A stretch of DNA of 64,000 bases from Candidatus Woesebacteria bacterium (GCA_035402805.1 DAONDY010000002.1:229111-293110); one strand, 5' to 3'; counted from the stretch's first letter, positions 3,610 to 62,453 are shown. Notes: generated from the letters alone by a model not told the origin. Translations and numbers: made by a program.

Positions 3610-5778
3610 TTAAACTATTTTTTTGCCCCATCTTTGTTGAGAAGTATTTATAAGTTTGGCTCGTTGTTGATTTTTACAGGAAAGTGGGGCTAAAGTAGTG
3701 GCATAAAAAGGTTCGGTAGTTTCTGAGTCTATAGAAAGTTTACAGACAATTTGATATTTCCCAATTTTAATTAAATCTTCAGGAGGGAAGGCAGGTCCAA
3801 ATTCTTTAGCTAAGATAAAAGCATCCTGATTACCAACTACAAAAGACATAATTGAACCGACGTTGCCTAAAATGGCGTCTTGGATAGTTTTGTCGAGCTG
3901 TGACATATATTGGTTGGCGACGATTAAATTTAATTTAAATTTACGAGCTTCAGAAAGAATTTTAATAAAAGCTTCAGTGGCAAAATTTTGGAACTCATCA
4001 ACGTAGAGATAAAAATCGGAACGATCTTCACTGGCTTGAAAAACACGATTCATAGCTGAGAGTTGGATTTGAGTAATTAACATGGCGCCTAATAGAGAAG
4101 AATTATCTTCACCAAGACGACCAGTGGATAAATCAGCAATTAAAATCTTCTTTTGATCCATTATTTCTTGGATATTTATTTTTGATTTAGCATGGGCGAC
4201 AGTATTTCTAATATTTGTTGAAGAAATAAACTGGCCAACTTTATTTAAGATAGGGGAAACAGCTTCGTTTTGGAACTTAGGATCCATGCGATCGAATTCA
4301 TTATGCCAAAAATTAATTAAGGTTTGATTGGTTAATTGAGAGACTGCTTTTTGGCGGAAATTTTTATTAGTTAAAATTTCAACGATATGGGTCATATCGG
4401 ATCCTGGAATATTGACTAGAGTTAAAACGGCATTTCTTAAGATATGTTCAAGACGAGGACCCCAAGAAATATTGCCATAAAGTTTTTTAAAAATTGAAAG
4501 AACACCAGAAGCAATCAATTCTTTTTGATTTTCATTTTTGGCCTCTAAAACATTGAGAGGATAGGCATATTCTGGATCAGCTGGATTAAAATAACAACAA
4601 TCGTTAATACGATTACTAGGAATGTAATCAAGGATGGTATTACATAAATCACCGTGAGGATCGATAACAGCAACGCCTCGACCTTTACGAATATCGTCAA
4701 TGGCCATATTGGCAATTAAAGTTGTTTTACCAGTACCAGATTTACCGATAATGTAGGTATGGCGGCGGCGATCTTCGCCTTGTTTAATACCAAAAATAGA
4801 GTCTTTATTTCTAAATTCAGTTTTAGCAAAAAAAGTAATTTCATTTTTTTGTTCAGGAGTGAGATTATCGGCAATTGGAAGATTTTCTGGCGGATCGGCA
4901 TAAAGTTTCTTACCCCAGGCAATATTGGGAAGCTTGGTATTTTGGTTGGGAAAATGCCAAATGGCGGCTAATTCTTCGGTATTAAATATTTGGCTTTTTA
5001 ACTTGGAATTAAATTTGCGAAGGCAAATAGATTCTCGAAGTTTCTTTTTAGTGAAGAAAACAGGGGTAAAATTTTTAATAAAATTACCACGAGGGTTGGT
5101 GTAGGCACCAAAAGAAGAGGAAACTGAAGAAATAAGTCCGGGATTATTGCTCAAAAGATTAATTTGGGTATAAAGACCGGGAAATTGAATTTTTTGTTCA
5201 AAAATGGCTTTGTCAGGATGGGCGGTACGAATATTTCTTTCTTTATCGACCAAAATGCCATTTTGAATGGTGCCAATAATTCCACTTTGCCAATTTTTGG
5301 GAGCACCGCTTAAAAGAATTTGGAAGAGAAAAAAATCTTTATTGTTATTAGACCTGGAAAGGGGAGCTAAAACGGAAGTTAAAGGATCGGTATCTTTAAA
5401 ATCTTTGGCGGTTTTAGTGGGGTAATCGTAAGATCGGCCTAAACCAAGCTGAGTAAAACTAATGGGTAATTGAGGATCGAGTTCTAAAAGGTAATCTTTG
5501 GTTTCTCGTAAAATAGCAGTGGAATACTGGGCGAGGATTTGGGAACGAAGAAACTCACTATTATTAGAAAGGGCGGCGATATAAAAATGAATTTGGCCAT
5601 CTTTCAAAACTATTTCTAACGAAACAATGGTTTTCTTTTTGCCAATTATTTTTTCAAAAAACGAAAGATTGGAAAATTGGGTGAAATTTGATAAAAGGGC
5701 AGACATCGATTCAAAAGTGTGTTCATTGGTTTGAGGTAGACGAACTTCAAAAATTGAAAGACTGGCAGTGTCAGACAT
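3610..5778 (-). CDS. FtsK/HerA/TraG-superfamily P-loop ATPase, resembling a type IV secretion coupling protein or DUF87
   Basis: Walker A GKSGTGKT is followed by DPHGDL. A Walker B-like YLYVDEFQNF and an ANQYMSQL tail are typical of TraD/VirD4/HerA-like ATPases. No N-terminal TM segments. Confidence 0.5.
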   Translation of the reverse strand: MSDTASLSIFEVRLPQTNEHTFESMSALLSNFTQFSNLSFFEKIIGKKKTIVSLEIVLKDGQIHFYIAALSNNSEFLRSQILAQYSTAILRETKDYLLELDPQLPISFTQLGLGRSYDYPTKTAKDFKDTDPLTSVLAPLSRSNNNKDFFLFQILLSGAPKNWQSGIIGTIQNGILVDKERNIRTAHPDKAIFEQKIQFPGLYTQINLLSNNPGLISSVSSSFGAYTNPRGNFIKNFTPVFFTKKKLRESICLRKFNSKLKSQIFNTEELAAIWHFPNQNTKLPNIAWGKKLYADPPENLPIADNLTPEQKNEITFFAKTEFRNKDSIFGIKQGEDRRRHTYIIGKSGTGKTTLIANMAIDDIRKGRGVAVIDPHGDLCNTILDYIPSNRINDCCYFNPADPEYAYPLNVLEAKNENQKELIASGVLSIFKKLYGNISWGPRLEHILRNAVLTLVNIPGSDMTHIVEILTNKNFRQKAVSQLTNQTLINFWHNEFDRMDPKFQNEAVSPILNKVGQFISSTNIRNTVAHAKSKINIQEIMDQKKILIADLSTGRLGEDNSSLLGAMLITQIQLSAMNRVFQASEDRSDFYLYVDEFQNFATEAFIKILSEARKFKLNLIVANQYMSQLDKTIQDAILGNVGSIMSFVVGNQDAFILAKEFGPAFPPEDLIKIGKYQIVCKLSIDSETTEPFYATTLAPLSCKNQQRAKLINTSQQRWGKKIV

Positions 5779-9173: not shown

Positions 9174-11627
9174 ATGAAAAAACAAAAAGGTATTTCCCAA
9201 ATTGCAGTGATGATTGTTATGTTAGTTTTGGCAATCGCACTTCCAATAACAACAAATTTAGTTAAAAAGAGTCAAGAGAATAGAAGTAAAGCGGCTACAT
9301 TTGATTGTACTATTTTTAATAAAGAAACGTGTTTACAAAACAAAGAGGAATGTTGGTTTAATGGCGGTAATTGTTACAATTTGATTGAGAATGGTTTCGA
9401 ATGTATTCATGATTCTATAATTGGTTTCCCTGGGAGTTGTAAAAGTGGTATTCAAAAAGATATGTATTGTGTTGGTTCTAAAAATGATTGTGTCGATCGG
9501 GATGCTAACAGAGTTATTGTTAGTGGAGAAATTAGTTGTTGGGATTGGGCGGTGCAAATTTGTGAATATGGAAGTTTTAAATCACTTTCTGGAGATAAAT
9601 GGGGAGAATCATCCTGCGATGATAACTCTTTATTAGAAGGAGGTACTTGTAGTGGAAATAAAACAGGTTCTTGTACATATACAAAATCTACACCGCCTCC
9701 AGCTTCAACTTGTTCTTCTGATTGTAAAGGTTGTAACCAACTTGAATGTTCTTATCAAACTGGTTGTACTTGGAGTTGGAATAATTATTCTTGTGTTAAA
9801 AATTCAGGAGATCAACCACCAATTACTAATCCTACTGGATCTGATCAAGGATGTATAAATAAAGGTGGTACTTGTAAAACTATTTCAAATGATACGTGTG
9901 GTAGTGGTTATACAACGTATATAGACGGTGGTTTATGTACTACAATTCCTGATCATAGTTATCAGTGTTGTGTTCCGTCAACTAATCCTAATCCTCAACC
10001 TGTTATTAGTAGTACTTGTGATAGTCAAACTGGGGCTGCCTGTATTAATTCTTATAGTGGAGTGACAAATGGTCTTACTTGTACTGGTAGTAGTGGAGGG
10101 ACTAATGGTGGAACGATAAATACTAGTTTTACTTGTTCTACTATTGGAAAGGTTTGTTGTGTACCAAAATCCACTACTGATACTCCTGTTATAAATACTC
10201 CTGTTACAGATATTACTTATGATTTTACGAATGCAGTTTGTGTTGACAGTAGTGATACATGTCGTGCTAATTATGGTACGGTTATTTCCGGAACGACTAA
10301 ATGTACAAATACATCAAATCCAATTTATTGCATAGTTGATACATGTAAGAAAAATGAAGGTGGTACTTGTAGAGATTTAACATCAAGCAATAATGTTTGT
10401 CCTAATGGTGAACATGTAGGTAATGGTTTGTGTCCTATACTTGGTAATTATTGTTGTAACCCTGCTTCTGATCCTACAGAGGGCGCAAATACTTATGCAT
10501 GTGTACAGGAGGGTGGTATCTGTTATGACTTAGGATTAAGTCAAAATGTTTGTCCTAATGGGGGAACAGCATCTACAACTAGTGGATGTCTTAATACAAA
10601 AGGTAAAAATTATCAATGTTGTGTCAAATCTACTAGTACTCCTACCACTCCTGTAGATAGTTGTACTGGTTTACTTGGAATGCAAAAATGTATTGGAGAT
10701 AATAAATACGTTAATTGTCAGATAGATACTAATAATTATTTAGGTAATCCTACATATAATCAAACAATATGGTGGACTATTAGTCCTCAAAGTTGTCCTA
10801 CTGGACAAGTTTGTACAAGTGGTAATATAGCAGGTTTTGTTTGTGGAGCTCCTACTCCAGTTACCCCTGTTACTCCAACTAGTGTTTGTATAAGCGGTAA
10901 TCAAAAATGTACTGCGACAAACAAATACTTTACTTGTAATAGTGGTCAATGGTCAACCTCAACAACTAATTGTCCATCTGGACAGATTTGTACAAATGAT
11001 GCCATTGGAACCAATGTTTGTAGAGCGACTGATTATACAGCTCCAAGTTTAAATCTGTTCTTTGCCGTTTCTGGAGTTAAAGCAGTTAATCCATGTTTTG
11101 GAGATCTTAGTTTCAAAGTTAATGTAGCTAAGGATGGTCAAGATGGAATGACTGGAAATGTAACAGCTACAGTCGTGGCTAATAAATTTAATTCTTTAGG
11201 TGATCAAGTATTTAAAATTAGTAATTTTGCTTTGGATAATACTTATGCCTTAACTGATAAAATTAAGGTTTTTGTCTCCGGAAAGAAAACATTGGCGACT
11301 TTGTATGGTAAGAATAACCAGGTTGGAGGATTTGGAGCTTTAAATAGCAGCCAAATACTGGTTTCCAGCTTAAGCAATGGCGCTATTTTGGATTTCTCTG
11401 GCTATCCAGTTCTCAATGGAGATGTTGGACAAGTAGGTCAATTGGGAGTTCAAGATGGAGTGGTTAATGCGGCTGATTTTGGTCATATGAAAAATCAGTG
11501 GGGAAAGACTTGCAGTGATGGTCAGAATTTAGAAGCTGACTTAAATGGAGACTGCCGAGTTGATACTTTTGATTTACAAATTTTGAAGAATGCAAATGCA
11601 GAACAATATGCCCAAAAAACATTTTAA
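9174..11627 (+). CDS. Large secreted/anchored cysteine-rich modular protein with a C-terminal dockerin-like module
   Basis: N-terminal hydrophobic anchor. Many repeats of a Cys module (GGTC...C.NG...C...CC[VN]P). The C-terminus contains DGVVNAADF...ADLNGDCRVDTFDLQILK, resembling tandem dockerin Ca-binding repeats. Confidence 0.55.
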   Translation: MKKQKGISQIAVMIVMLVLAIALPITTNLVKKSQENRSKAATFDCTIFNKETCLQNKEECWFNGGNCYNLIENGFECIHDSIIGFPGSCKSGIQKDMYCVGSKNDCVDRDANRVIVSGEISCWDWAVQICEYGSFKSLSGDKWGESSCDDNSLLEGGTCSGNKTGSCTYTKSTPPPASTCSSDCKGCNQLECSYQTGCTWSWNNYSCVKNSGDQPPITNPTGSDQGCINKGGTCKTISNDTCGSGYTTYIDGGLCTTIPDHSYQCCVPSTNPNPQPVISSTCDSQTGAACINSYSGVTNGLTCTGSSGGTNGGTINTSFTCSTIGKVCCVPKSTTDTPVINTPVTDITYDFTNAVCVDSSDTCRANYGTVISGTTKCTNTSNPIYCIVDTCKKNEGGTCRDLTSSNNVCPNGEHVGNGLCPILGNYCCNPASDPTEGANTYACVQEGGICYDLGLSQNVCPNGGTASTTSGCLNTKGKNYQCCVKSTSTPTTPVDSCTGLLGMQKCIGDNKYVNCQIDTNNYLGNPTYNQTIWWTISPQSCPTGQVCTSGNIAGFVCGAPTPVTPVTPTSVCISGNQKCTATNKYFTCNSGQWSTSTTNCPSGQICTNDAIGTNVCRATDYTAPSLNLFFAVSGVKAVNPCFGDLSFKVNVAKDGQDGMTGNVTATVVANKFNSLGDQVFKISNFALDNTYALTDKIKVFVSGKKTLATLYGKNNQVGGFGALNSSQILVSSLSNGAILDFSGYPVLNGDVGQVGQLGVQDGVVNAADFGHMKNQWGKTCSDGQNLEADLNGDCRVDTFDLQILKNANAEQYAQKTF

Positions 11628-12251: not shown

Positions 12252-12962
12252 ATGAAAAGGACTGTCCAAAATTTGTTGATTTTAAGCGCATTTTTATTGT
12301 TATCTACTAAGGTGGCAGCAGCAGCAGATCCAAGATTTTCATTAAATCCAGCCACTGGAAATTATAAGGTGAATGATACTTTTACGGTGACTATAGCAAT
12401 AGATTCAGCTGGCCAGGTGGTTGGTGCTGCTGATGCAGTCGGTACTTTTGATTCAAATATATTAGAGTTAACTTCGTTAAATGCGGCGACGGATATGGTT
12501 TTTAATTCAACTCAAACTGGTGGTTCTTGTATGCCAAGCAGTAGTTCTGAATGGGCCAGTGGTAAATTTTCAATTACTTGTTACTCTAATATGAGTTCGG
12601 GCGATGAAGCAGTTAGTGGAAATTTAGCAGTATTGACTTTTAAAGCCAAGACAACTGGAACTGCTAATGTTAATTTTACTTGTAATGGAGGAGCTGGTGA
12701 TTCAAATATAATTCAATCAGCAACTGTAAAAGATCTAATTGTTTGTTCAGCTAATGGCAGTGGCTCTTATACAATTTCTGCGGGATCTAGCACTTCAACG
12801 GTGACTTCGACTCCAACTCCGACAATAAAAGCTTCAACAACAACTACTACAACAACCACAACAACTGAATTACCTCAGACTGGAGGAATTGCAACAACCT
12901 TGGGTTTGATTGTTTTTGGAGCGATTAGTTTAGCTTCGGCATTGTTTTTAAAATTCTTATGA
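12252..12962 (+). CDS. Cohesin-like domain surface protein with Thr-rich linker and LPXTG sortase anchor
   Basis: Signal peptide. Cohesin-like segments (FTVTIAIDSAGQVVGAADAVGTFDSNILELTSL; LAVLTFKAKTTGTANVNF). A Thr10 linker, LPQTG, and a hydrophobic tail. Confidence 0.55.
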   Translation: MKRTVQNLLILSAFLLLSTKVAAAADPRFSLNPATGNYKVNDTFTVTIAIDSAGQVVGAADAVGTFDSNILELTSLNAATDMVFNSTQTGGSCMPSSSSEWASGKFSITCYSNMSSGDEAVSGNLAVLTFKAKTTGTANVNFTCNGGAGDSNIIQSATVKDLIVCSANGSGSYTISAGSSTSTVTSTPTPTIKASTTTTTTTTTTELPQTGGIATTLGLIVFGAISLASALFLKFL

Positions 12963-13603
12963 AGGGTAAAGTCAATTTAAAAACGATTATTATTCTGGCA
13001 ATATTGGTTTTAGTAATTATTCTGTCTGTTTTGGTGGTAAACACGGCCAAGACTTTTATAAGTGGAGCGGCGGCTGATTATGAGCCACAAAATTTAATGG
13101 CCGTTCCTAAAGAGGATGGAAAAACAGCAGTGGTTTCTTGGACAACTGATAAAGAAGTAAGAGCATCTATTTTTTATGGAACTAATATGGCTAGCTTACT
13201 TTTAATGGCTGAAGATATAGAGGCAACAATTGATCATAATATTTTATTAACAAATTTAAAAAGCGACACAACTTATTATTACAAAATAGTGATAGATAAC
13301 GATAATATTTTTGATAATGGTGGATTAATGTATAACTTCAAAACTAATGCTAGCTTAGAACCCGTAGTTACAATTCAGCCTACCTTAATTCCAACGATAG
13401 CAGCGTCTTCTAGTGGTTCTTCAGCTTGTGATAGAACTACTGATTATAATAAAGATGGGACTGTTAACAGCATAGATTATATTTCTTGTACTAAAGGGGC
13501 AATTACTCCTGGAGTCAGTGATGTGTGTGCTGGTGATTATAATAAAGATGGAGTTACTAATAGTCTTGATAGAATAAAGTGTTTACAAGAGACCAAAAGA
13601 TAG
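12959..13603 (+). CDS. FN3-like domain protein with a C-terminal tandem dockerin-like module
   Basis: N-terminal TM. A purple-acid-phosphatase-N/FN3-like segment (AVVSWTTDKE...TTYYYKI). C-terminal DYNKDGTVNSIDY and GDYNKDGVTNSLDRIKCL repeats (dockerin type I-like). Confidence 0.5.
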   Translation: MKGKVNLKTIIILAILVLVIILSVLVVNTAKTFISGAAADYEPQNLMAVPKEDGKTAVVSWTTDKEVRASIFYGTNMASLLLMAEDIEATIDHNILLTNLKSDTTYYYKIVIDNDNIFDNGGLMYNFKTNASLEPVVTIQPTLIPTIAASSSGSSACDRTTDYNKDGTVNSIDYISCTKGAITPGVSDVCAGDYNKDGVTNSLDRIKCLQETKR

Positions 13604-22249: not shown

Positions 22250-23227
22250 ATGAAAAAAGGAATAGTGATAGGATTATTTTTGGGAGTTTTTGTAATGAGT
22301 CTGTTTTTTTTATTTTTAAATAAAAAAGAGACTATTAAAATTAAAAAAGAGATTATCGATGAAGAATCGGTGGTGACAGAAGTGGTTGAAAAAGCAACTC
22401 CAAGTGTAGTAACAATAAGAACTGAAAGGGATATTGGAACGGGATTTATAGTTAGTTCTGATGGTTTAATTGTGACTAATAAACATGTAGTGGCTGATAT
22501 TGGGACTAAATATAAAGTGATAATTGATAAAGAGGAAATTGAGGTTAAAGATATTTACCGGGATCCTTTAAATGATTTGGCCATTATAAAGATAGAAAAA
22601 AATAATTTAAATAAAGTTGATCTTGGTGATTCTGATAAATTAAAAGTAGGACAATCGGTGATTGCCATTGGGACAGCTTTGGGTGAATTTAGGTCAACAG
22701 TGACGACTGGAGTGATTTCGGGATTAGGGAGGGGAATTACGGCAGGCGAAGTGGGTGAGGTGGAAAAATTAACTAATGTAATTCAAACTGATGCGGCAAT
22801 TAATCCTGGTAATTCTGGTGGTCCATTATTTAACTCTAGCGGTCAGGTGATTGGAGTTAATGTAGCCGTGTCACAAAGCGGACAAAATATCGGTTTTGCT
22901 TTGCCAATAAATTTAGTTAAAGAATCGATTGACTATTTTAGGGAAACAGGGGAGTTTGAAAGACCTTATTTGGGAGTGGGTTATAAAATGATGGAAAAAG
23001 GGGCTTGGGTGGAAAGTATTTTGGAAAATAGTCCGGCAAGTAAGGCAGATATTAAAATCGGTGACATAATTATTGAAATTGATGGACAAAAAATAAATAA
23101 AAGCGATAATGGGGATTTGGTAAAAATAATCAATCAGAAAAAAATAGGACAGATAATTAATATAAAAATTCAAAGAGAAAAAACGGAAAAAATAGTTGAT
23201 GTAAATTTAGAAAAGAAAATTAATTAA
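22250..23227 (+). CDS. htrA: HtrA/DegP-family serine protease with PDZ domain
   Basis: Catalytic triad context (TNKHVV, D, GNSGGPL) and a C-terminal PDZ. Confidence 0.85.
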
Positions 23228-23953
23228 TTTTCTTTTTTTTTCAGTTGGTTGGTCGAGGACAGTGAGTTCGAGAAGTAAATCGTCTAGATTGCCTTGTAAG
23301 ATACTGTCCAAGTTATTGAAGGTTTTGTCTATTCTATGGTCTTTTATTTGATTTCTTGGGTAATTGTATGTTCGAATTTTATCAGCTCGGCCTGATTGGC
23401 TGATACCGGATCGACCGGCGGCCAATTGAGCTTGTTTTTTTTCTTCTTCTATTTGATAAAGTTTATTTTGTAAAAGCTTTAAAGCGATTTCGCGGTTTTG
23501 TTGTTGATAGCGTTCTGTACGAACATCAAACATTAATCCAGTTGGTTTGTGAACCAAATGGACGGCAGTGGACACCTTATTGACGTTTTGACCACCATTG
23601 CCTCCAGCTCGACTGGCGGTGATGACAACATCATCCATACTAAAATTAATTTCTTTTGATTCAATCTGGGGCATAATAGCAATAGAAGCAGTAGAAGTTT
23701 GAAGACGACCACGTTTTTCAGTTATGGGAATTCTTTGGACACGATGGGTACCGGCCTCATATTTTAATTGATTATAAGCATCAAATCCGGAAATTTGGAT
23801 TATAAAACCATCAATCTGTCTAACTTTCCAACCGACTTTATTGGCGTAGCGGACATACATATTCATTAAATCCTGAGCCCAGAGAGATGCTTCTTGACCT
23901 CCCGGACCTGGGTGAAATTCCATGATGGCGATATTGGGATTAATTGTTGGCAT
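23207..23953 (-). CDS. prfA: Class I peptide chain release factor (RF1-like, PxT = PIT) lacking N-terminal domain 1
   Basis: GGQ motif ([13 protein letters not shown]) and the codon-recognition region [10 protein letters not shown] (PxT type). The alignment to RF1 starts at about residue 105 of the E. coli protein. The rpmE stop lies 11 nt upstream of the ATG. Confidence 0.7.
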
Positions 23954-23964
23954 GTAAGCAAAAC

Positions 23965-24219
23965 CTAGTTTGATTTTTTGGCTTCTTTTTTAGCGGCTTT
24001 ATCAGCGGCGTATTTTTTACCCTGACCAACTTTTTCGTTGAATTTATCAATTCTACCTTTAATGTCGACAAATTTTTGTTGACCAGTAAAGAAAGGATGA
24101 CATTTAGAACAAACTTCAACGTCGATTTTTTCTAAAGTTGAACCAGTAGTAAATTTATTGCCACAAGCACAAGTGACTTGGCAATTGTCAAAATATTGAG
24201 GATGAATTCCTTGTTTCAT
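23965..24219 (-). CDS. rpmE: 50S ribosomal protein L31
   Basis: MKQGIHPQY...C..C...C..CHPFFTG is typical of L31. Confidence 0.85.
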
Positions 24220-24227: not shown

Positions 24228-25463
24228 TTATAGCATACTAATCAGTTCTTCTAATCCAACTGATTTTTGTTCGGTAGTAGCTAGATTTTTAACTGTAATT
24301 TGATTATTTTTTGCTTCGTCGGTACCAATGATAGCTACGTAATTAACACCTAAATTATCGGCATATTTTATTTGTTTGCCAAGCTTGTCTGGATCAGGAT
24401 AGACAATGCAGGAAATATTATTTTGTCGGAGAGTTGAACTTAAGTTTAAGATATTACTTTCTGTTTCTGGACCAAAATTGGCAATTAAAATTTTCGTTTT
24501 TGATTTATTGGCCTCTGGGAGAAGATCGAGCTCTTTAATAACATCGATAACCCGTTCAAATCCAAAAGCGAAACCAACAGCGGGGATATTAGGTCCACCA
24601 AGAGTGGAGACTAAATTATCATAACGACCACCACCACCGATGGCACCAATTTTTGGTTCCAACACACTAACTTCAAAAATGGTTCCAGTATAATAATCAC
24701 AACCGCGAACTAGAGTTGGATCAAAAACATAAGCATTATCTGGGAGTCCAAAAATCTTTAATTTGTCTAAGACTTGTTTTAAGTTTTCATCTGGTTGAGC
24801 TTCTTTGATATATTTAAAGAGATTGTTAATTTGGGTTTGTACTAAACCCTTAGAATTGAGCTCATCTTTTACTCCATTTTCACCTATTTTCCCTAACTTA
24901 TCAAGAGATTGAAGTATACTATTTTGATCTTTTTCAATGCCACTTTTGGCCAAAATATCAAAAAGAACCTGACGACTATTTATGGAGATAATAGTATTTT
25001 TAAAATTCAATTTTTGGACGCCAGCATAAATTATGGAAATTATTTCGGCATCAGCGATAGGGGATAAAGTCCCAAAAATATCTACATCGCATTGGACAAA
25101 TTCTCGATAACGGCCCTTTTGGGTGTTTTCAGCTCGCCAAACTGGTTGAATTTGATAGCGTTTAAAAGGAAGTTGAATTTCGTTATTATAAATAGCTAAA
25201 ACCTTAGAAGCGGGAACAGTTAAATCGTAACGAAGACCGACTTCGCGATCACCATTATCTTTAAAGAAATAGCCTAATTTGTCATCAGTTTCGTTACTGT
25301 ATTTACCTTTTAAAACCGAAGCATATTCTAGAGCTGGGGTTTCCAACGGGGAAAAACCATATTTTTCAAAAATATCAATTAAGGTATTTTTGACATAGTT
25401 ACGGATACCCATGTCTTTAGGCAAAAAATCTCTGAAACCTTTTAATGTTTGTGGTTTGATCAT
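24228..25463 (-). CDS. hisS: Histidyl-tRNA synthetase
   Basis: [15 protein letters not shown] start. Class II motifs and GGGRYD. The start is taken at the internal Met (25463). Confidence 0.85.
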
Positions 25464-33911: not shown

Positions 33912-34812
33912 TAGCAACGGTAGTAATAATGTCTTGAACATTACAACCTCTAGAGAGATCATTTATGGGTTTTTTAATGCCTTGTGTAAGAGGGCCGCAG
34001 GCGTTAATACCAGCAATTCTTTCGACTAATTTATAGGCAATATTGCCAGAGTCTAAATTAGGAAAAATTAAGATATTAGCTTGACCGCCAATACAATTTC
34101 CGGGGAATTTAAGGTCACAAACGCGAGGAACTAAAGCAGAATCAGATTGTAATTCACCTTCGATGATTAAATCAGGGTTTATTTGTTTGGCAATGAGGGT
34201 AGCTTGTTTAACCTTATCGACGGATTCTCCTTTGCCGCTACCGTTAGTAGAATAGGAAAGCATGGCGATTCTGGGAATCTTTTGAGTTAGGTCTTTAAAT
34301 GAGTTGGCGGTTTGAATGGCAATTTCGGCAAGTTCTTCGGCATTTGGATTAACATTTATTCCACAATCAGCGAAAAATAATAGCCCATTTTCACCTAAAT
34401 TTTGATTATTAGTTTCAATAACAAAAAAACTAGAAATTAATTTTGAATTTTTGGCAGTTTTAATAATTTGAAGAGCGGGAAGAACTGTTTGCAGGGTAGT
34501 GTGGTTAGCACCAGCCACCATACCATCGGCCAGGCCAGAATGAACCATCATGGTGCCAAAATATAGAGGATCTTTAGATAAAATTTTAGCTTGATCTAAA
34601 GTTAATCCTTTTTCTTTTCGGAGTTCAAAAAGGGTTTGGGTGAATTGATCTTGATATTGGGAATAGGGAAGATTAGTGATAATATCGGCAATTTTTTGAT
34701 CTCGGATAATTTTAGCGGCTTCGATAATTCGATCATCGTCTATTTCTGGTAAAACAATTTTTTTATATTTTTGTTTAGCTTGTTGATAGATATTTTCAAT
34801 AATCGGATTCAT
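33889..34812 (-). CDS. pta: Phosphate acetyl/butyryl-transferase
   Basis: Pta-family C-terminal half. The GELQ.D.A segment is typical. Confidence 0.7.
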   Translation of the reverse strand: MNPIIENIYQQAKQKYKKIVLPEIDDDRIIEAAKIIRDQKIADIITNLPYSQYQDQFTQTLFELRKEKGLTLDQAKILSKDPLYFGTMMVHSGLADGMVAGANHTTLQTVLPALQIIKTAKNSKLISSFFVIETNNQNLGENGLLFFADCGINVNPNAEELAEIAIQTANSFKDLTQKIPRIAMLSYSTNGSGKGESVDKVKQATLIAKQINPDLIIEGELQSDSALVPRVCDLKFPGNCIGGQANILIFPNLDSGNIAYKLVERIAGINACGPLTQGIKKPINDLSRGCNVQDIITTVAITSIQSK

Positions 34813-35045
34813 GTAGATAGTATATCTTAATTTAATTAAATTAGGTTTATGTTGTAATTTATCCTAAAAATAGGCAATATTTAATTAGAGAAGGGGAAGA
34901 CAGGGGAATATTTTAGTTTCATATATGGGTCTTTAAATATATGTAAAAATAAAAATACAGCTAAGGTTTAAAGGTTAAATCAACTGAATATTTTGAAGCT
35001 AAGTTAGGTTCAAAAAAAAGATGAAGGAACAGGGTGGAGGGGAGT

Positions 35046-35112
35046 CCTATAATATGTAAAAGATCCTATAATATTTTCACGAATTATCCTATAGTTTTCA
35101 CGGAGCAGGTGA
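35046..35112. promoter_or_regulatory. Three tandem imperfect ~22-bp direct repeats (TCCTATA[AT]AT[TTTTCACGRA]), iteron-like
   Basis: agtcctataatatgtaaaaga / atcctataatattttcacgaatt / atcctatagttttcacggagc. A DnaA-box-like tgtggaaaa and an AT-rich tract (35195-35250) follow. Confidence 0.4.
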
Positions 35113-35286
35113 TACAGTATGATATAGTCCCTGTGGAAAACTTATTTTTAGCCGAGTGTATCAAAATGAACCTGACGAGAGGGAGGAGGAAGGATTAATT
35201 AGAAGTTAATTAATAGTTTAGTAATTAATAATTAGATAAAAATACACAGAGGGAGGATAGTAGTTTTAATTCCTATCTCCTAGCAG

Positions 35287-35338
35287 AAGGAGGTTAAATA
35301 TGCTATGTCGCACAATGTATCTTTTGCGACTCTATTAA
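35287..35338 (+). other. Strong Shine-Dalgarno (AAGGAGG) plus a 12-codon mini-ORF (MLCRTMYLLRLY) inside the ORF-free region
   Basis: aaggaggttaaatATG...taa. Preceded by a hairpin (ggaggatag...ctatctcc). Most genes in this window lack strong SD sequences. Confidence 0.3.
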
Positions 35339-35660
35339 AAGATTTAACCAGGGGGAGTACTGTTTTAGTAAATTAATTTTTGGTTTTAAATTTCCAATTT
35401 TTAGTCTCTGTTTTTATTTGATTATTTTTATTTATTAATTTAATTAAATTCCCCATTTAGCCTTCCGGCTTGGATTTTGGATTTATTAAGAAGAAATTTT
35501 AAAATTTGACTCCCCTATACCTTTTTAAGGCGGGAGACTTTGGGTATTGTGCCTAAAGATAGGCAAAATGAACCTAAAACACTACCAGAGCCCCTAGAAA
35601 TGAAGATCTAAAAAATACCGGATACTTTTACCTCTTATTTATTAAATTGTTTGTAAGGTC

Positions 35661-36638
35661 TTGGCAAAACTGTCCATCATGGTAAGATTGTTTATGGAAA
35701 ATGATTTAGATATTTTGATTAGACGATTTCTAGAACATTTGGAAATTGAAAAGAACTGTTCAAGGTTAACAATTAGAAACTATCAACATTATTTAGAAGT
35801 TTTGGTTCATTTTTTATCAGAAGAGAATAAGGAAAAAAGATTAACAGTGAACTGCATAACTTCAGACGTAGTGAGAAGGTTCAGGTTGTTTTTAGCTAGA
35901 CAGAAGGGAAGTATTGGAGAAATGAAATTGGTGACGCAGGGTTATTATGTTATTGCTTTAAGGTCATTTTTAAAATGGTTAATAAAAAACGACTATAAAG
36001 TGTTGCAGCCGGAAAAATTAGATGTTCCCAAAGTTAAGGATCATTCTTTAAAGTTTTTAGACGGGGATCAGATGAACAGGCTTTTAGTGCAACCTCTCCC
36101 CTCCTCAAAAAATGGTTTTAGAGACAGAGCAATTTTAGAGCTTTTATTTTCAACTGGATTACGTGTTTCGGAGTTAGTTCATCTTAATCGAGATCAAATT
36201 AATTTAAAAACGAGAGAATTTGGAGTGATCGGTAAAGGTGGTCGAGCGAGAGTGGTTTTCATCTCAAAACAAGCGGCTGATCATGTCGCAAAATATTTAA
36301 TGAGCCGAGAAGATAAGTATAAGCCCCTATTTATAAGAATTTTAAGAACAAATGAAATTCCAGTTAGCGATGAAGCTGTAAGATTAACAGCCAGGTCAGT
36401 GCAAAGGTTGGTAAAGCATTATGTAAAGTTGGCCAATTTGCCAGTGGAGGCAACACCTCATACTTTAAGACATTCAATGGCTACTGACATGTTAAGGTCA
36501 GGTGCCGATCTTAGGTCGATTCAGGAAATTTTGGGTCATAAAAACATTGCTACGACGCAGATTTATACCCACGTAACCAATGCAGGATTACGCGAGGTTC
36601 ACGAAAAATTTCATAGCGGCAATCAACCTAAAAAATAA
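35661..36638 (+). CDS. xerD: XerD/XerC-like tyrosine site-specific recombinase
   Basis: Catalytic R...HxxR...Y region (ATPHTLRHSMATDMLRSGADLRSIQEILGHKNIATTQIYTHV) and an N-terminal SAM-like core-binding domain. Confidence 0.8.
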   Translation: MAKLSIMVRLFMENDLDILIRRFLEHLEIEKNCSRLTIRNYQHYLEVLVHFLSEENKEKRLTVNCITSDVVRRFRLFLARQKGSIGEMKLVTQGYYVIALRSFLKWLIKNDYKVLQPEKLDVPKVKDHSLKFLDGDQMNRLLVQPLPSSKNGFRDRAILELLFSTGLRVSELVHLNRDQINLKTREFGVIGKGGRARVVFISKQAADHVAKYLMSREDKYKPLFIRILRTNEIPVSDEAVRLTARSVQRLVKHYVKLANLPVEATPHTLRHSMATDMLRSGADLRSIQEILGHKNIATTQIYTHVTNAGLREVHEKFHSGNQPKK

Positions 36639-36647
36639 ATTTTGTCT

Positions 36648-36679
36648 ATGTAGAGACGCGATTAATCGCGTCTCTACAT
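36648..36679. repeat. Perfect 32-bp palindrome A (ATGTAGAGACGCG-attaat-CGCGTCTCTACAT), a terminator-like hairpin
   Basis: Read directly from the sequence. TATAAT at 36686-36691 and an ATG at 36697 follow. Confidence 0.7.
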
Positions 36680-36696
36680 GTTTGTTATAATCGGTT

Positions 36697-37017
36697 ATGT
36701 ATAAAATGTTTGTGTTTTGTCCAGATGACGAGAAAATTATTTTTGACATTATTGAAGCGGTGGCTGGAGTTGGCGCTGGAATAATGGGAAATTATACACA
36801 CACATGTTTTTATACAAAAGGAATTGGAAATTGGAAATCAGAAGAAGGATCAAATCCAACAATTGGAAAAGTTGGAGAATTTTCTCATGAATCCGAAGTT
36901 AGAATTGAAATGATTTGTCCTGAAGAAAAAGCTAAGGCAATAAAAGAAGCTATTAAAATAATTCATCCATACGAGGAACCGGAAATTGATTTTGTAAAAT
37001 TGGTTGATGTCGAATAA
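36697..37017 (+). CDS. Small Nif3/YqfO-insert-like (PII-fold-like) domain protein
   Basis: The C-terminal IHPYEEPEIDF resembles the NIF3-family HPYEEP motif. 106 aa. Confidence 0.4.
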   Translation: MYKMFVFCPDDEKIIFDIIEAVAGVGAGIMGNYTHTCFYTKGIGNWKSEEGSNPTIGKVGEFSHESEVRIEMICPEEKAKAIKEAIKIIHPYEEPEIDFVKLVDVE

Positions 37018-37047
37018 TTTTAATATCAATCCCCTTTTGTTTTTATA

Positions 37048-37079
37048 ATGTAGAGACGCCCCGCGGGGCGTCTCTACAT
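37048..37079. repeat. Perfect 32-bp palindrome B (ATGTAGAGACGCC-ccgcgg-GGCGTCTCTACAT), with the same 12-nt arms as palindrome A
   Basis: Read directly. The central 8 nt differ in a compensatory way (G..C versus C..G at the stem top). Confidence 0.7.
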
Positions 37080-37297
37080 TTAATTCTATAATACCCTATA
37101 TTTTCGGTAAATTACTCAAAATCCCCTTTTTGGTCTGTTTTTACCAGATTTGGTTTAGACCATCTAAAATTTATCCCTAAATTACGGTAAAATTGAAAAA
37201 TGCTAGTATATTAGCAATCATTAATCTAGTCTGCTAACTGATACCTACTTAATGTGTATGTCCTATAATAGCTTTAAAAATCAGCTGAGAACAAATC

Positions 37298-39943
37298 TTA
37301 TTTCGTTTTATTTTCAGCTTCTGATTCAGGATCATTCTTGTCAAGAATAGTCATGGCGTTCAATTTATCATCAGTTGATTTAAAACGCATAAGGATAACA
37401 CCTTTAGTATTGCGGCTAAGAGTAGGGATATTTTTTAAAGGTAGTTTAATGGTTATGGCTTTTTTGGAAACTAAGACAACTTGGTCGTTAATTTCAGAAA
37501 CGACTTGGGCGGCGGCAATTTTACCGGTTTTAGTACTTAGGTTAGCCACCTTAATGCCAATACCACCTCGTTTTTGTGACGGATAGAGATAAACATCAGT
37601 TCGCTTTCCGACACCATTTTCTGTGACCACTAGGAGATGTCTAAAGGTTCCTTTTTCCTTTTTATCAAGACCAGTGGGAACAACATCCATACCGACTAAA
37701 GTGTCGTTTTCTTTTAAGAGAATTCCACGGACACCTCGGGTTTGTCGGCCCATAGGTCGGCAATCTTTTTCATCGAAGCGAATGCATTTACCATTGGCAG
37801 TAACTAAAAATATATGATTATTACCTTCGGTTAACTTAGCCCAAATAAGCTGATCGTTAAGATCTAGTTTTATTGAAGCTAACCCGGTTTGGCGAATATT
37901 TTTGAATTTATCAATTGAAGTCTTTTTAACGACTCCGTTTTTAGTAGCAAGTAAAATAAATTTAGCTTTAGTGTTTTTACCAATAGGTAAAACTGTTTGA
38001 ACGGTTTCACCTTGAACAATATTAATTAAATTAATCACAGCTTGACCTTTACCTTGTCGTGATCCTTCTTGGATATCCCAAACTTTAGTTCTGAAAACAC
38101 GACCACGATTGGTAAAGAATAATAAATCGTCGTGAGTATCCACTGAAAGCATACATTCAATTTCATCCTCTTGCTTAGTGGTCATACCAACAACGCCGAC
38201 TCCTCCACGTTTTTGAGTGTGATAAGTTTCTTTGGCAACTCTTTTAATATAACCAGTTTTGGTTAAAGCAATTAAAACTTCTTCGTTGGGTATTAGGTCT
38301 TCTTCACTAAATTCTTCCAATCCACGGGCATAAATTTTGGTTTTTCGGACGTCACCATATTTTTCCATGATTTCTTTATTTTCTTGCTTAAGAACACTGA
38401 TCATAACTTCTGGTTTGGTAATAATGCTGGTTAAATAGGCAATAGTTTTTTCAATTTCATTATATTCTTCATCAAGTTTTTGTCTTTCAAGTCCAGAAAG
38501 CTTTTTAAGCTGCATTTCCAAAATGGCTTGAGCTTGGAGATCGGTGAATCCAAACTTTTCCATTAATTTAATTTTTGGATCTTCATCTGGTTTAGTGCCA
38601 CGAATAGTTTTAATGACTTCATCAATAACATCGAGAGCTTTTTTGAGACCTTCCAAAATGTGGGCTCGCATTAAATCGCCTTTTAGGTCAAAAATGGTTC
38701 GGCGACGAACAACATTTTCTCGGTGGCGCAAGAAAAGGAGTAACATTTGGCGGAGGTTTAAGGTTTGGGGAACATTATCAACTAATGCCAACATATTGGC
38801 AGAATATGATGATTGAAGAGAGGTATATTTGAAAAGCTTATTTAGAACAGATTTGGGTTTACCGATTTTTTTAATTTCAACAACAATGCGAATACCATGA
38901 CGGTCTGATTCATCACGAAGATCAGAAATGCCAATAATTTTTTTATCGTGAACTAAGTCAGCAATTTTTTTAACTAATTCAGCTTTGTTAACCTGATATG
39001 GAAGTTCAGTAATAATAATTCTTACCTTGCCGGATTTAGTTTCCTCGATGTTAGTTTTACCGCGGACAATAAATTTACCTCGGCCGGTGGTATACATTTC
39101 AGTAATTCCACTTTTTCCGTAAATTTCGGCAGCAGTTGGAAAATCTGGTCCTTGGACAAATTTTATTAGATCTTCAACGTTGGCTGTAGTCTCAAAATTA
39201 AAATGTTCTTTAGATAATTCGTAAGCTGGTCTTAAAACCATTTCTTGAGTGTTTTTAGGTGAAGCTAAGAGATTATTTAATTCACTTTCTGAATTAATTC
39301 TTTCTAGTCGGCTATGATCCAAAATAAAATCAATGGCTTGGCAAATTTCTTTTAGATTATGGGGAGGAATACGAGTGGCCATACCGACAGCAATACCGTC
39401 AGCACCATTTAAAAGCAATGTAGGAATTCTAGTTGGAAGAACGGATGGTTCTTTTTCGGTGGCATCGAAATTGTCGATCATATCAACGGTTTCTTTGTTT
39501 ATATCAGCAACAATTTCAGTGGTGATTTTATCCATTTTAACTTCGGTGTAACGCATAGCGGCCGGAGGGTCGCCATCGATAGAACCAAAATTTCCTTGAC
39601 CTTTGATTAAGGTATAACGCATAGAAAAATCTTGAGCTAAACGAACCAGAGCACCATAGACAGACATATCACCATGAGGATGATATTTACCTAAAACATC
39701 ACCAACAACTTTTGCCGATTTACAGGTTTTTCCACCGCTTCCTAAACCCATTTTATCCATGCCAAAAATTATACGGCGGTGAACTGGTTTAAGACCATCT
39801 CGAACATCAGGCAAAGCTCTGGCGACAATGACCGACATAGCGTAATCCAAATAGGATGTTTCCATTTCTGGAACTATGTCAACTTCTATAAGTTTGCCAA
39901 TATTATTTTTTTGAATATCAATGATTTTATTTTCGTCAGCCAT
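37298..39943 (-). CDS. gyrA: DNA gyrase subunit A
   Basis: N-terminal [27 protein letters not shown] and the active-site Tyr region. Lies downstream of gyrB. Confidence 0.95.
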
Positions 39944-54215: not shown

Positions 54216-55346
54216 TTAGGCGTTGGCGAGGCAATAATAGGCACCTTTAGTAGAACCACGTTTTTCAACAGCACCACTATCGACCAATTTTTTAAGGTCA
54301 CGCCAAATAGTATCGTCGGAAACCATAGGAAGAAGTTGTTGAGCATCGGGCATTCTGAGTCCACCGAATTGCTGCATGTATTCGACTAATTTAATTTGTC
54401 TTTCAGTTAAATGGAGTTGCTTACCGCCAAGTTTTTGTTTCAATTTAATATCTCTAGAAAGAGATTGAACTTTGGTTTTGACACGAGATAATTCGATAGA
54501 TAAGGCTTCAGTAAAATAACTGATCCAATTGGTTAAATCTCTTTTAAAAATATCAGACGAGAGTTCGTGGGTAGATTGAAGGGTGTTGTAATAAATTTCA
54601 GCATTACGATCAAAATATTCTTCAAGAGAAAAAAGACGACGAATGTCGTAACCTTCAACATAAAGAGGCAACATAGCAAAGGCACGGCTGACACGGCCAT
54701 TACCCTCAACAAAAGGATGAATGGCAACTAAAATATATTGAGCAATGGCGGCGCGGATGGCAGGATGAATTTCTCGTGAAGCAGAGTTGTTCAACCAGTC
54801 AACAAAATCGGTAATTAAATAAGGAACTTCAATGGCCGGTGGTGGTCGATGAGCAATTTCGCCGGTACGGGTATTTTTAAGAACAACCTGTTGGTGTCGG
54901 TATTTTCCACAATCGATTTCGGGAATGATTTTGGCAGTAGTTAGCTCGTGAATTCTTTTAACAATAGTTTCACTATAAAAGAAAGGACGATTTTTATCTG
55001 AATTGGCTGGGACAGATTTTTCTTCTGGAAGAGGCATGTTGGCGTCATAAAGTGACCAAAGCTCTTCAAGATAAGAGACAACGTTTCGGTAGTTGATTAC
55101 TTCTTGAATATCACGTTCAGTGGCAGTTATTTGTTGACCTTCGACTAATTTAGCAACTTCTTGAAAGGTAAGATCGTTACCTTCTATTCTGGTACCAAAG
55201 TGGACAGTGCGGACTATAGCTTCTTGTTGAAATTGTTTTTCGTAAGCAGGAATTAAGGGAGCTTCATCAATAATAGCTTTAGCACCTTCAATTATGCCAA
55301 TGTTTTTTAAAATTTGATTATTGATTGAAAATACGGGATAAAACAT
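54216..55346 (-). CDS. Fic-family protein (AMPylator-like) with a C-terminal winged-helix domain
   Basis: HPFVEGNGRVSR Fic motif. Confidence 0.8.
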   Translation of the reverse strand: MFYPVFSINNQILKNIGIIEGAKAIIDEAPLIPAYEKQFQQEAIVRTVHFGTRIEGNDLTFQEVAKLVEGQQITATERDIQEVINYRNVVSYLEELWSLYDANMPLPEEKSVPANSDKNRPFFYSETIVKRIHELTTAKIIPEIDCGKYRHQQVVLKNTRTGEIAHRPPPAIEVPYLITDFVDWLNNSASREIHPAIRAAIAQYILVAIHPFVEGNGRVSRAFAMLPLYVEGYDIRRLFSLEEYFDRNAEIYYNTLQSTHELSSDIFKRDLTNWISYFTEALSIELSRVKTKVQSLSRDIKLKQKLGGKQLHLTERQIKLVEYMQQFGGLRMPDAQQLLPMVSDDTIWRDLKKLVDSGAVEKRGSTKGAYYCLANA

Positions 55347-56089: not shown

Positions 56090-57829
56090 ATGAATGATCC
56101 TGCCTCAAAAATATACAAGAACTTAAAGGATGCCCTTTTAGAAAAAGGTTTGATTAATCAGGAAAAATACGAGGAGATTAATTTAAGACAACTAAAAACC
56201 GGGGAAACAGAGGAAGAAGTTATCAAGGCGTTGAGATTGGTTTCAGATATTGATTTTGTTAAATGCAAAGCTTTGTTTTTGAGGGTACCTTACGTTGATT
56301 TAGAAACGATTGGTTTTTCGCCGGAAGCTTTGACTTTAGTACCGGAAAGTGTGGCTCAAAAATATAAAATAGTTCCTTACGGCCTGGATACAAAAAATAA
56401 AGTTTTGTCTATCGCTATGGTTAATCCATTAGATTTGGAAACCATTGAATTTTTGGAAAAAAAGACAGATTTGAAAATAAAGGTAGCAATTTCTTTAGAG
56501 AAGCAAATTAACTCTTATATTAAAGAAAAATACATTCGAGAAAAAAATATCACTTCTGAAGTGACTAGGGCTTTAAATGAAAGAAAGGATGACGAAAAGG
56601 TAACAAAGTTAGCTGATGAAAAGGTGGCGGTTGAAGCTCCAGTGGCAAAAATAGTATCGACTATTTTGGAATATGCTGTTAAATCTAGAGCTTCAGATGT
56701 CCATATTGAACCTCAAGAAGATAATGTCAGAATTAGATATCGAATAGATGGTATTTTGCAGGAAAAATATTTATTGCCGAGAAATGTTCATGACGCAGTC
56801 GTGTCGAGAATTAAAATCTTATCTAACTTAAAGATCGATGAAAAGAGAATCCCTCAAGATGGACGATTTTTCTTTTCAGCTGATGGCAATGATGTAGATT
56901 TACGTATATCAACTTTACCGACAACTTACGGTGAAAAAGTCGTTATGCGTTTACTTAAAAAAGCTCAGAAAGTACCAACATTACAGGAATTGGGTTTAAG
57001 AGGTATGGCTCTAAAAAATTTGATGAATTCGATTCAAAGACCTCATGGAATCATTATTGTTTGTGGACCAACTGGTTCAGGAAAAACAACGACTTTATAT
57101 TCGGTATTGGATATTGTGGCGACATCAAAAGTAAATGTAGTAACAGTGGAAGATCCAGTTGAATATCAAATGAAAGGAGTTAATCAGGTTCAGGTTAACG
57201 TTCAGGCCGGTTTAACTTTTGCTTCGGCGTTACGCTCTTTTTTACGTCAAGATCCTAACGTAATCATGGTTGGAGAAATTCGTGATCAAGAGACTGCAGA
57301 TTTGGCTGTTAATGCTGCCTTAACTGGACATTTAGTTTTTTCAACTTTACATACAAATGATGCGTCTGGCGTTCCGCCAAGATTATTGGATATGGGAGTG
57401 GAACCGTTTTTGCTGACATCATCTTTGAATTGTGTGGTTGGACAGAGAGTTTTACGAAAAGTTTGTAAAAACTGTGTACAAGAAATGGAAATTCCATCGG
57501 AAAGTATTAGAGAACTTAAAGAAACACTGGGTCCTATTTACAATATGATCGAGGATAAGTTTGCCAAAGATGGTAAAAAATTAACGTTACCCAAAATTGT
57601 TGGATGTGAGAAGTGTAATAATACTGGATATTTAGGGCGAGTTGCTATATATGAGGTAATGCCAATTACAGAAAAATTAAGTAAATTAATTGTGGAAAAG
57701 GCAGCAGCTTCGGATATTCAGAAACAGGCAATGGAAGAAGGAATGTTGACGATGAAACAGGATGGTTATGTAAAAGTTTTAGAAGGAGTAACTAGTATGG
57801 ATGAAGTTATTAGAGTTGCTCAATATTAG
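56090..57829 (+). CDS. pilB: Type IV pilus assembly ATPase PilB (GspE family)
   Basis: GPTGSGKTTTLYS Walker A, tetracysteine CKNC...CEKC. Confidence 0.9.
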   Translation: MNDPASKIYKNLKDALLEKGLINQEKYEEINLRQLKTGETEEEVIKALRLVSDIDFVKCKALFLRVPYVDLETIGFSPEALTLVPESVAQKYKIVPYGLDTKNKVLSIAMVNPLDLETIEFLEKKTDLKIKVAISLEKQINSYIKEKYIREKNITSEVTRALNERKDDEKVTKLADEKVAVEAPVAKIVSTILEYAVKSRASDVHIEPQEDNVRIRYRIDGILQEKYLLPRNVHDAVVSRIKILSNLKIDEKRIPQDGRFFFSADGNDVDLRISTLPTTYGEKVVMRLLKKAQKVPTLQELGLRGMALKNLMNSIQRPHGIIIVCGPTGSGKTTTLYSVLDIVATSKVNVVTVEDPVEYQMKGVNQVQVNVQAGLTFASALRSFLRQDPNVIMVGEIRDQETADLAVNAALTGHLVFSTLHTNDASGVPPRLLDMGVEPFLLTSSLNCVVGQRVLRKVCKNCVQEMEIPSESIRELKETLGPIYNMIEDKFAKDGKKLTLPKIVGCEKCNNTGYLGRVAIYEVMPITEKLSKLIVEKAAASDIQKQAMEEGMLTMKQDGYVKVLEGVTSMDEVIRVAQY

Positions 57830-57849
57830 TTAATATAAATTAAAAAAAT

Positions 57850-58920
57850 ATGAATATAAAAATGGAGGAAATTTTAAAATTTGCGGTGGCAAATAAGGCT
57901 TCTGATATTCATCTTATTTCTGATGTTCCCCCAAAAGTTAGGGTTAATGGCGATCTCTTAAATATATCTGGTTTTGAAAATACCGACAAAAAAGGAATTA
58001 GAGAAATGGTTTTATCTCTTTTGGATGAAAAACAACTGGAGGCATTTAATAAGGAAAAAGAATTAGACTTTTCTTTTGATGCAGTGGATGGAACTCGTAT
58101 TAGAGCTAACGTTTATTTTCAAAAAGGTGAACCAGCTTGTGCCTTAAGATTAATAGCTTCGAAAATCCCCTCTTTTGAAGAACTAGGAATTCCAGATATT
58201 TTGAAAACTTTTACTAAATATAAACAAGGGTTTGTATTAGTGACTGGTCCAACAGGTCACGGAAAATCAACCACAGTAGCAGCTATGTTGGAAGAAATTA
58301 ATGCAACTAGAGGTGGACACATTGTGACAATAGAAGATCCAATAGAATATTTGATTAAGCCGGAAAAGGCAATTATTTCTCAAAGGGAGATGGGCGGAGA
58401 TACTAACAGTTTTGATTTGTCTTTGAGATCGTGTCTTAGACAGGATCCTAATGTGGTATTTTTGGGAGAAATGAGAGATTTGGAATCAACATCTTCGGCT
58501 TTGACAATTGCGGAAACTGGTCATTTAGTTTTTTCAGTTTTACACACCAATTCAGCTGCCCAGACTATAGATAGAATTATTGATGTTTTTCCAGCTGACG
58601 CTAAAGATCAAATTAGAGTTCAGTTATCAACGGTAATTACGGCTATTATTTCACAAAGATTAGTGCCAGCGATTGATGGAGGCAGAATCCCAGTTTTTGA
58701 AATTTTAATAGCGACTCCAGCTGTTAGAAATGTGATTAGGGAAGGAAAATCTTTTATGATTGATAATATTATCCAAACTAGCTCGGATATTGGAATGATA
58801 AGTTTTGATGCTTATATGGCCAAACTAGTTTTAGATGGTAAAGTCTCTGAGGAAGTGGCAATGAGTTATTCGACAAATCCAGTTGAATTACAGGGTAAAT
58901 TAAGAAGACAAAAAATATGA
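57850..58920 (+). CDS. pilT: Twitching motility ATPase PilT
   Basis: GPTGHGKSTT, and a short PilT-like length with no N-terminal extension. Confidence 0.85.
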   Translation: MNIKMEEILKFAVANKASDIHLISDVPPKVRVNGDLLNISGFENTDKKGIREMVLSLLDEKQLEAFNKEKELDFSFDAVDGTRIRANVYFQKGEPACALRLIASKIPSFEELGIPDILKTFTKYKQGFVLVTGPTGHGKSTTVAAMLEEINATRGGHIVTIEDPIEYLIKPEKAIISQREMGGDTNSFDLSLRSCLRQDPNVVFLGEMRDLESTSSALTIAETGHLVFSVLHTNSAAQTIDRIIDVFPADAKDQIRVQLSTVITAIISQRLVPAIDGGRIPVFEILIATPAVRNVIREGKSFMIDNIIQTSSDIGMISFDAYMAKLVLDGKVSEEVAMSYSTNPVELQGKLRRQKI

Positions 58921-60128: not shown

Positions 60129-60206
60129 TTTCAGTAGCTGTCACTTGACAGCTTAATTTTAGTGGTGAATAATGAATTAATAGCATTAAATATTTATTAG
60201 GAAAAA

Positions 60207-60887: not shown

Positions 60888-60908
60888 ACTCTAAATTAGA
60901 GATAATTA

Positions 60909-60935
60909 AAACCCCGCTTAAAGGCGGGGTTTTTT
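60909..60935 (+). terminator. Rho-independent terminator after the pilin gene
   Basis: aaccccgc-ttaaag-gcggggtt followed by tttttt. A second weaker hairpin and T-run lie at about 60934-60972. Confidence 0.8.
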
Positions 60936-62436: not shown

Positions 62437-62453
62437 AAATAGTAAAATGACTT

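Follow-up and report, generated by a model that had tools for sequence, protein, structure and literature searches.

A prfA ortholog encoding an RF1-type release factor without domain 1 is conserved in Shapirobacteria-like Microgenomates

The window, by which we mean the whole 64,000-nucleotide stretch of DNA that was analyzed, has a G+C content of 33% and, read with table 11, a high coding density. It contains a short prfA gene (prfA-short) as the last member of a tightly packed, co-directional hisS-rpmE-prfA unit, which has spacers of 8 and 11 nt and in which a terminator scanner found no terminator-like site. Convergent genes for HtrA and an S41 peptidase follow. The protein has been deposited as HPT66270.1, a "PCRF domain-containing protein", and related short proteins are publicly named in the same way or as "release factor-like" proteins. 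The unit and the relevant sites within it are as follows.

23207..23953, minus strand: prfA-short (RF1), ATG start, TAA stop, 248 aa, domains 2, 3 and 4 only.
23588..23596, minus strand: GGQ catalytic motif, Gly120-Gly121-Gln122, invariant in all 120 of the best 120 relatives.
23699..23701, minus strand: Gln85, at the position of T. thermophilus (Tth) His193 (E. coli His197).
23720..23728, minus strand: PxT "tripeptide anticodon", Pro76-Ile77-Thr78 (PIT), equivalent to T. thermophilus RF1 P184-V185-T186.
23804..23815, minus strand: site of a 10-residue deletion in the domain-2 beta-hairpin, around Ile47-Phe50, replacing Tth "...SHPTDLGGFS..." in HMMER alignments to RF1s of the PDB.
23891..23902, minus strand: helix alpha5 tip, Gly18-Gly19-Gln20-Glu21, aligned with Tth Gly116...Glu119.
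23954..23964, minus strand: rpmE-prfA spacer, 11 nt (GTTTTGCTTAC), without a terminator and without space for coding.
23965..24219, minus strand: rpmE (ribosomal protein L31, 84 aa), Pfam E 1e-29, TAG stop at 23965-23967.
24228..25463, minus strand: hisS (histidyl-tRNA synthetase, 411 aa as called), Pfam tRNA-synt_His and HGTP_anticodon, 8 nt upstream of rpmE.

Several other features of the window deserve mention in their own right. A large type IV pilus cluster occupies 56090-63779 and extends beyond (locus L046), encoding PilB-like and PilT-like ATPases, PilC, a prepilin peptidase, PilM and at least 10 pilin-like proteins with N_methyl motifs. Two proteins, of 817 aa (9174-11627) and 214 aa (12959-13603), carry dockerin type I domains at their C termini, and the smaller one additionally carries a purple acid phosphatase N-terminal domain; one would not expect dockerins in a reduced CPR genome, and no obvious cohesin partner is in view. 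A 376-aa Fic-domain protein is encoded on the minus strand at 54216-55346, between a DNA polymerase III delta'-like gene and ligA. Finally, the region between pta and gyrA (34812-37300), which contains a tyrosine integrase (35661-36638), a small unannotated ORF and about 850 nt flanking the integrase without any ORF of at least 80 aa, may be the remnant of a mobile element.

The preliminary description had read prfA-short as an RF1-type factor with PIT and GGQ motifs that is missing all of domain 1. Both motifs are present, and the top NCBIfam match is prfA (NF001859, 270.8 bits), which begins at profile position 106 of 347. The best matches among solved structures are residues 87-321 of T. 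maritima RF1 and residues 105-345 of T. thermophilus RF1, with approximately 45-50% identity over the entire query, so that the protein starts where domain 1 gives way to domain 2, near residues 99-105 in T. thermophilus numbering. Pfam results agree with this picture, in that the RF-1 domain (PF00472) is complete at 106.5 bits and PCRF (PF03462), at 106.2 bits, is matched in its C-terminal half only (profile 101-194 of 194), both above the gathering cut-offs. The protein falls below the NCBIfam equivalog cut-offs (270.8 versus 400 for NF001859 and 266.6 versus 423.25 for TIGR00019), which is expected because about 30% of the model is missing from it. In an AF2 model, which is of moderate quality (mean pLDDT 70, with low values in the C-terminal 60 residues), the N-terminal peptide MPTINPN leads directly into the first domain-2 beta-strand (residues 3-15), and a Foldseek search with this model gave ribosome-bound RF1 as the best match (TM 0.66, E about 1e-19). 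The core of the preliminary description held up in all of the tests that were run, although the 10-residue deletion in domain 2 had escaped its notice. This deletion, seen relative to the RF1s of T. thermophilus, T. maritima and S. mutans, is common to all Microgenomates-type RF1s; because those that retain domain 1 share it, it must predate the loss of domain 1.

Since PrfH also lacks domain 1 (PMC1586002, PMC6514570), and since the window protein scores under the RF1 equivalog cut-off, one might suppose that prfA-short encodes a specialized rescue or alternative factor resembling PrfH or ArfB, and that a normal full-length RF1 is encoded elsewhere. The profile comparison proposed in the preliminary description speaks strongly against such a factor, as PrfH (62.4 bits, against a cut-off of 166.65 for TIGR03072) and ArfB (42.5 bits, against 100, with the match limited to residues 100-135) score far below prfA, and prfB reaches 195.3 bits. 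The Foldseek search likewise placed PrfH (E 2e-10) far below RF1. The window protein possesses a full decoding superdomain, which ArfB does not, and its motif is PIT, the SPF tripeptide of RF2 being absent. Its RF1-specific decoding residues are all invariant, while the decoding loops of PrfH are divergent (PMC1586002). Among the neighboring genes checked, which include rpmE and htrA, there was no rtcB adjoining prfA-short, and tblastn with the window protein matched only itself in the window, revealing no RF paralog there. A PrfH or ArfB identity is ruled out by these scores, residues and gene context, and the broader idea of a rescue factor beside a second, normal RF1 is very improbable, also in view of the ancestral rpmE-prfA locus, at which outgroups carry a domain-1-bearing RF1. 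The product of prfA-short is an RF1-type class-I release factor without domain 1.

Short ORFs demand caution, because truncation in metagenome-assembled genomes frequently turns out to be artefactual; prfA-short might have been in decay, have lost its 5' end, or owe its length to a misassembly or a wrongly called start. As the preliminary description had pointed out, there is no room for a missed N-terminus: rpmE fills the space upstream, its stop lies 11 nt before the ATG, and the RF1 frame remains free of stops for only 12 codons, which overlap the 3' end of rpmE and contain no ATG, GTG or TTG. The frame likewise closes 0-19 codons upstream of the match in about 30 GTDB species representatives, whose proteins are 233-245 aa in length. 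A hidden N-terminus was rejected for these reasons. An assembly artefact was rejected as well, since the identical protein is found on 11 contigs of separate assemblies, each with the same rpmE junction. Two candidate fusions, P0121 and P0126, which gave two-stretch matches in proteins of 477 and 481 aa, proved to be internal assembly duplications.

The pattern of conservation is that of a working gene. The best 120 homologs among 5.8 billion proteins are 64-92% identical to the window protein and 211-251 aa long (nearly all 233-251), and their named members belong to Candidatus Shapirobacteria or Patescibacteria. Length and N-terminal peptide are kept across about 30 species and these 120 protein clusters; in MPTINPN, residues M1, P2, N5 and N7 are at least 90% conserved among 30 relatives. 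Across 30 sequences, 83 columns are invariant, and the median pairwise dN/dS is 0.06 at a dS of about 1.5, or 0.07 for pairs with dS below 1. The gene is therefore under purifying selection and functionally constrained, and its interpretation as decay or artefact, to which we give almost no credence, is effectively refuted.

Conservation extends to the residues by which RF1 reads stop codons, as assigned in PMC3974865. At the alpha5 tip, where RF1 reads U1, the first base of the stop codon, the equivalents of Tth Gly116 and Glu119 are kept in 119 of the best 120 relatives, the remaining sequence being gapped there. Within PxT the Pro and Thr are invariant (120 of 120) and the x is variable, and the equivalents of Tth Q181, P184, T186, R191, T194 and S195, together with GGQ, are conserved in 119-120 of the same set. 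A variable position is that of Tth His193, whose E. coli counterpart, His197, stacks on stop-codon base 2 (PMC3974865). Here Gln is found in 97 and His in 23 of the best 120 short-clade members. We downgraded an initial view of the substitution as a special adaptation, since Gln recurs at this position in 8 of 146 diverse RF1 representatives (about 5%), seven of which are 296-462 aa long; it is a recurrent natural variant and not unique to the short clade.

Could domain 1 be supplied separately, either as a stand-alone small protein made by a split gene or through an L31-RF1 fusion produced by readthrough or frameshifting at the rpmE TAG? The proximity of this TAG to the prfA ATG (11 nt), the 12 stop-free codons that precede the ATG and the in-frame Amesbacteria junction, TAG-ATT-GTG, might be taken to favor the idea. 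Nevertheless, an HMM of domain 1, built from 133 sequences, gave no match in the Shapirobacteria-like loci when six-frame translations of all fetched loci were searched, and in the window it gave one marginal match (E 1.3e-3), which lies inside rpsB. All five positive controls were recovered, and beyond them the window and fetched loci yielded no convincing match, so that a detached domain 1 was rejected. The upstream in-frame exon or frameshift that might have restored domain 1, and which the preliminary description had named as the finding that would overturn it, was looked for and did not appear. The proposed fusion is countered by the fact that the window prfA lies in the -1 frame relative to rpmE, that most relatives have a 47-126-nt spacer, most with a terminator-like hairpin, and that L31 is not homologous to domain 1. 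Separate provision of the domain is thus highly unlikely.

Whether the loss of domain 1 is lineage-wide had been suggested as a check, and it proved to be so: about 30 species-level relatives, all Shapirobacteria-like Microgenomates, carry the same short gene in the same hisS-rpmE-prfA position, and the order, including the convergent htrA and S41 peptidase genes, is kept in all relatives. (The record titles of many of these metagenome-assembled genomes, including L001, L002, L004, L005 and others, read "uncultured Gammaproteobacteria bacterium" or "uncultured Pseudomonadales bacterium", which clashes with their gene content and with the 80-90% identity to Shapirobacteria proteins.) The same order is found in outgroups whose RF1 keeps its N-terminal domain, namely L030 (Cerribacteria), L033 and L034; in a further outgroup, L032, a 2.2-kb contig, only rpmE-prfA is visible. 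Because the locus is shared with these domain-1-bearing outgroups, the short gene is the positional ortholog of prfA and not a paralog of the PrfH or ArfB type.

We scored the length of domain 1 as the number of residues N-terminal to the start of the window protein, anchored on the GxGGxE motif. Canonical RF1s have 90-110 residues before this point, the "long" RF1s of Microgenomates have 46-70, forming a helical domain of reduced size, certain Amesbacteria RF1s have a stub of 14-19 residues (MDYFEWKK...), and the RF1s of the Shapirobacteria-like clade have none. The Amesbacteria short form (256 aa) and a 307-aa relative both begin 3 nt after rpmE, and the short form is therefore the product of an internal deletion, not of a miscalled start. 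In an unbootstrapped neighbor-joining tree of domains 2-4, complete or near-complete losses fall at three or more separate positions. Domain 1 has therefore undergone erosion across the Microgenomates and repeated loss, the Amesbacteria truncation being independent.

The use of stop codons in this lineage is relevant to the function of the protein. TGA does serve as a stop in the window, as had been claimed, ending 6 of its 66 ORFs, two of them within 4-base gene overlaps (12959-12962 and 58917-58920), and among 507 ORFs of related loci it accounts for 7.5% of the stops; the preliminary description took the use of TGA as a sign that an RF2 would be encoded elsewhere. TAG is the stop codon of 17% of the lineage's ORFs, rpmE included, and because it is read only by RF1, an RF1 activity is needed. 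Genes for frr, pth, tsf and rpsB are present in the window; prfB, prfC and prmC were found neither there nor in approximately 7-10 kb past its ends. The one CPR RF2 examined, from Nealsonbacteria (L040), is a full-length protein of 350 aa with the SPF tripeptide (RISPF).

Taken together, these findings make it very probable that prfA-short encodes an ordinary RF1, the positional ortholog of prfA, from which domain 1 was deleted in evolution and which works without contacts to L11 or RF3. Expressed in the window genome from the compact hisS-rpmE-prfA unit, the protein would use its domain 2/4 superdomain to read UAA and UAG in the 30S decoding center, through G18/E21, Gln73, Pro76-x-Thr78 and Thr86, and domain 3 would bring GGQ to the peptidyl-transferase center for peptidyl-tRNA hydrolysis; both the catalytic activity and the codon specificity are predicted from the conserved residues. 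Domain 1 of RF1 is known to touch the L11 N-terminal domain and domain 3 of RF3 (PMC3677378). As it is absent here, both contacts would be missing, and binding to and departure from the ribosome would have to proceed without them, amounting to a spontaneous recycling that is independent of RF3, a factor that the organism, as the preliminary description had surmised, may lack. In the account that PMC1586002 gives of Mora et al. 2003, E. coli RF1 without domain 1 keeps its specificity, its release activity in vitro and its function in vivo, and is no longer stimulated by RF3. These data and the known contacts of domain 1 suggest that the natural protein probably also recycles without RF3. A reviewer quoted in PMC1586002 states that E. 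coli RF1 is inactive on ribosomes lacking L11; because of this, loss of the L11 contact should not be trivially neutral and may require compensation.

A second line of observations concerns the junction of rpmE and prfA, which we compared in loci L001-L031 upstream of position ~10001. The rpmE stop codon is TAG in 28 of 30 Shapirobacteria-like genomes, against the TAG background of 17%, and in 3 of 3 Amesbacteria-type loci (L047-L049, at 3995-4003), while the genes neighboring rpmE change their stop codons freely. In 28 of 29 relatives measured, the spacer is 47-126 nt long and in most it holds a terminator hairpin; in L006 it is 19 nt. According to RNAfold, the hairpin begins about 7-12 nt past the rpmE TAG in most relatives, and the two Shapirobacteria-like genomes with rpmE TAA have no hairpin. 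In L007 the rpmE-proximal hairpin escaped a simple terminator scanner, probably owing to its bulge and long loop. The association has counter-examples in both directions: L032 and L034 combine TAA with a hairpin, and no terminator accompanies the TAG of the window and of L029.

In loci L001-L031 the rpmE terminator is separated from the prfA ATG by an AT-rich leader with short tandem-like repeats, e.g. CTTTATAA / ACTTTCTACTTTAAAC units, in variable copy number; in the window organism the whole leader has been deleted, leaving the 11-nt spacer. In L007 a strong terminator also lies between hisS and rpmE (9594-9631), such that rpmE there is an isolated unit flanked by terminators, as opposed to the window organism, in which hisS-rpmE-prfA is fused into one compact unit.

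By analogy, the UAG of rpmE and the terminator may constitute an RF1-sensing control element. A ribosome awaiting scarce RF1 at this UAG would cover the 5' arm of the terminator, allowing transcription to continue into prfA, and the TAG-ATT-GTG junction of Amesbacteria would tie the translation of prfA to events at the UAG, either termination or readthrough. Extending this, one could regard Microgenomates RF1 as a minimal self-regulating module, in which a two-module RF1 without L11 or RF3 contact is combined with a UAG-dependent attenuator, a notion that we consider speculative and rather unlikely. The precedent is the hemA-UAG-prfA arrangement of Salmonella and E. coli, from which Elliott 1989, as summarized in PMC2680264, proposed RF1 autocontrol; the proposed mechanism contributes little in E. 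coli (PMC2680264). In both cases the gene directly upstream of prfA stops with the RF1-specific UAG. Here, however, that gene is rpmE, and an intrinsic terminator follows the UAG after ~7-12 nt in most relatives.

To our knowledge, all bacterial and organellar RF1 and RF2 proteins that have been studied keep domain 1, even in bacteria without RF3. Searches of the full-text literature turned up no account of a housekeeping RF1 without domain 1 in CPR bacteria, although such proteins are already public under vague names. A lineage with this RF1, together with sister lineages that exhibit intermediates or independent truncations, is a natural experiment, which suggests that these cells can live without the L11 and RF3 contacts and that domain 1 can be dispensed with in nature, as it can in the test tube. 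Co-adaptations are likely in the CPR ribosome, at the L11/stalk base and in recycling by RRF and EF-G, and for structural and kinetic studies the short protein would be a natural RF1 of minimal size. There is also a practical consequence: prfA is a GTDB bac120 marker, and vague annotation could make such genomes appear to lack it.

Relative to canonical RF1 (prfA; TIGR00019 / NF001859; PDB 4V63 for T. thermophilus, 1RQ0 for T. maritima), domains 2-4 of the window protein align end to end with 40-50% identity, and PxT, GGQ, the G/E of the alpha5 tip, the equivalents of Gln181, Arg191 and Thr194 and the rpmE-linked prfA locus are all shared. The differences are the absence of domain 1, a helical bundle of ~100 residues that contacts the L11 N-terminal domain and RF3, the absence of the 10-residue domain-2 hairpin and, in a subclade, the replacement of His193 by Gln. 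Its closest relatives are other Microgenomates RF1s, comprising those with a reduced domain 1 (Cerribacteria L030, 306 aa; L032-L034, 317-318 aa; Amesbacteria-like P0350, 307 aa) and the Amesbacteria short form (P0123, KKU58406.1, 256 aa), which have the same synteny, domain-2 deletion and GGQNVNKV-type loop, but in which domain 2 is preceded by 46-70 residues or by the 14-19-residue stub, whereas nothing precedes it in the window protein.

PrfH/RFH (TIGR03072; PDB 9MOR, 7SA4) resembles the window protein in naturally combining a decoding-type domain and GGQ with the lack of domain 1 (PMC1586002, PMC6514570), and the survey of Burroughs and Aravind recognized it as the sole decoding-domain release factor without the N-terminal domain. 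The window protein, however, is characterized by RF1-type decoding residues, the lack of an rtcB neighbor and vertical inheritance at the prfA locus, whereas the decoding loops of PrfH are altered, its gene is coupled to rtcB and sporadic in distribution, and its role is the rescue of damaged ribosomes. The engineered E. coli RF1 of Mora et al. 2003, as presented in PMC1586002, likewise consists of domains 2-4 only. It is a laboratory construct in a host that has RF3 and an L11-dependent RF1 activity, whereas in the Shapirobacteria-like genomes the deletion is natural, fixed and conserved throughout the lineage, and no RF1 gene other than the affected one is seen at the ancestral locus.
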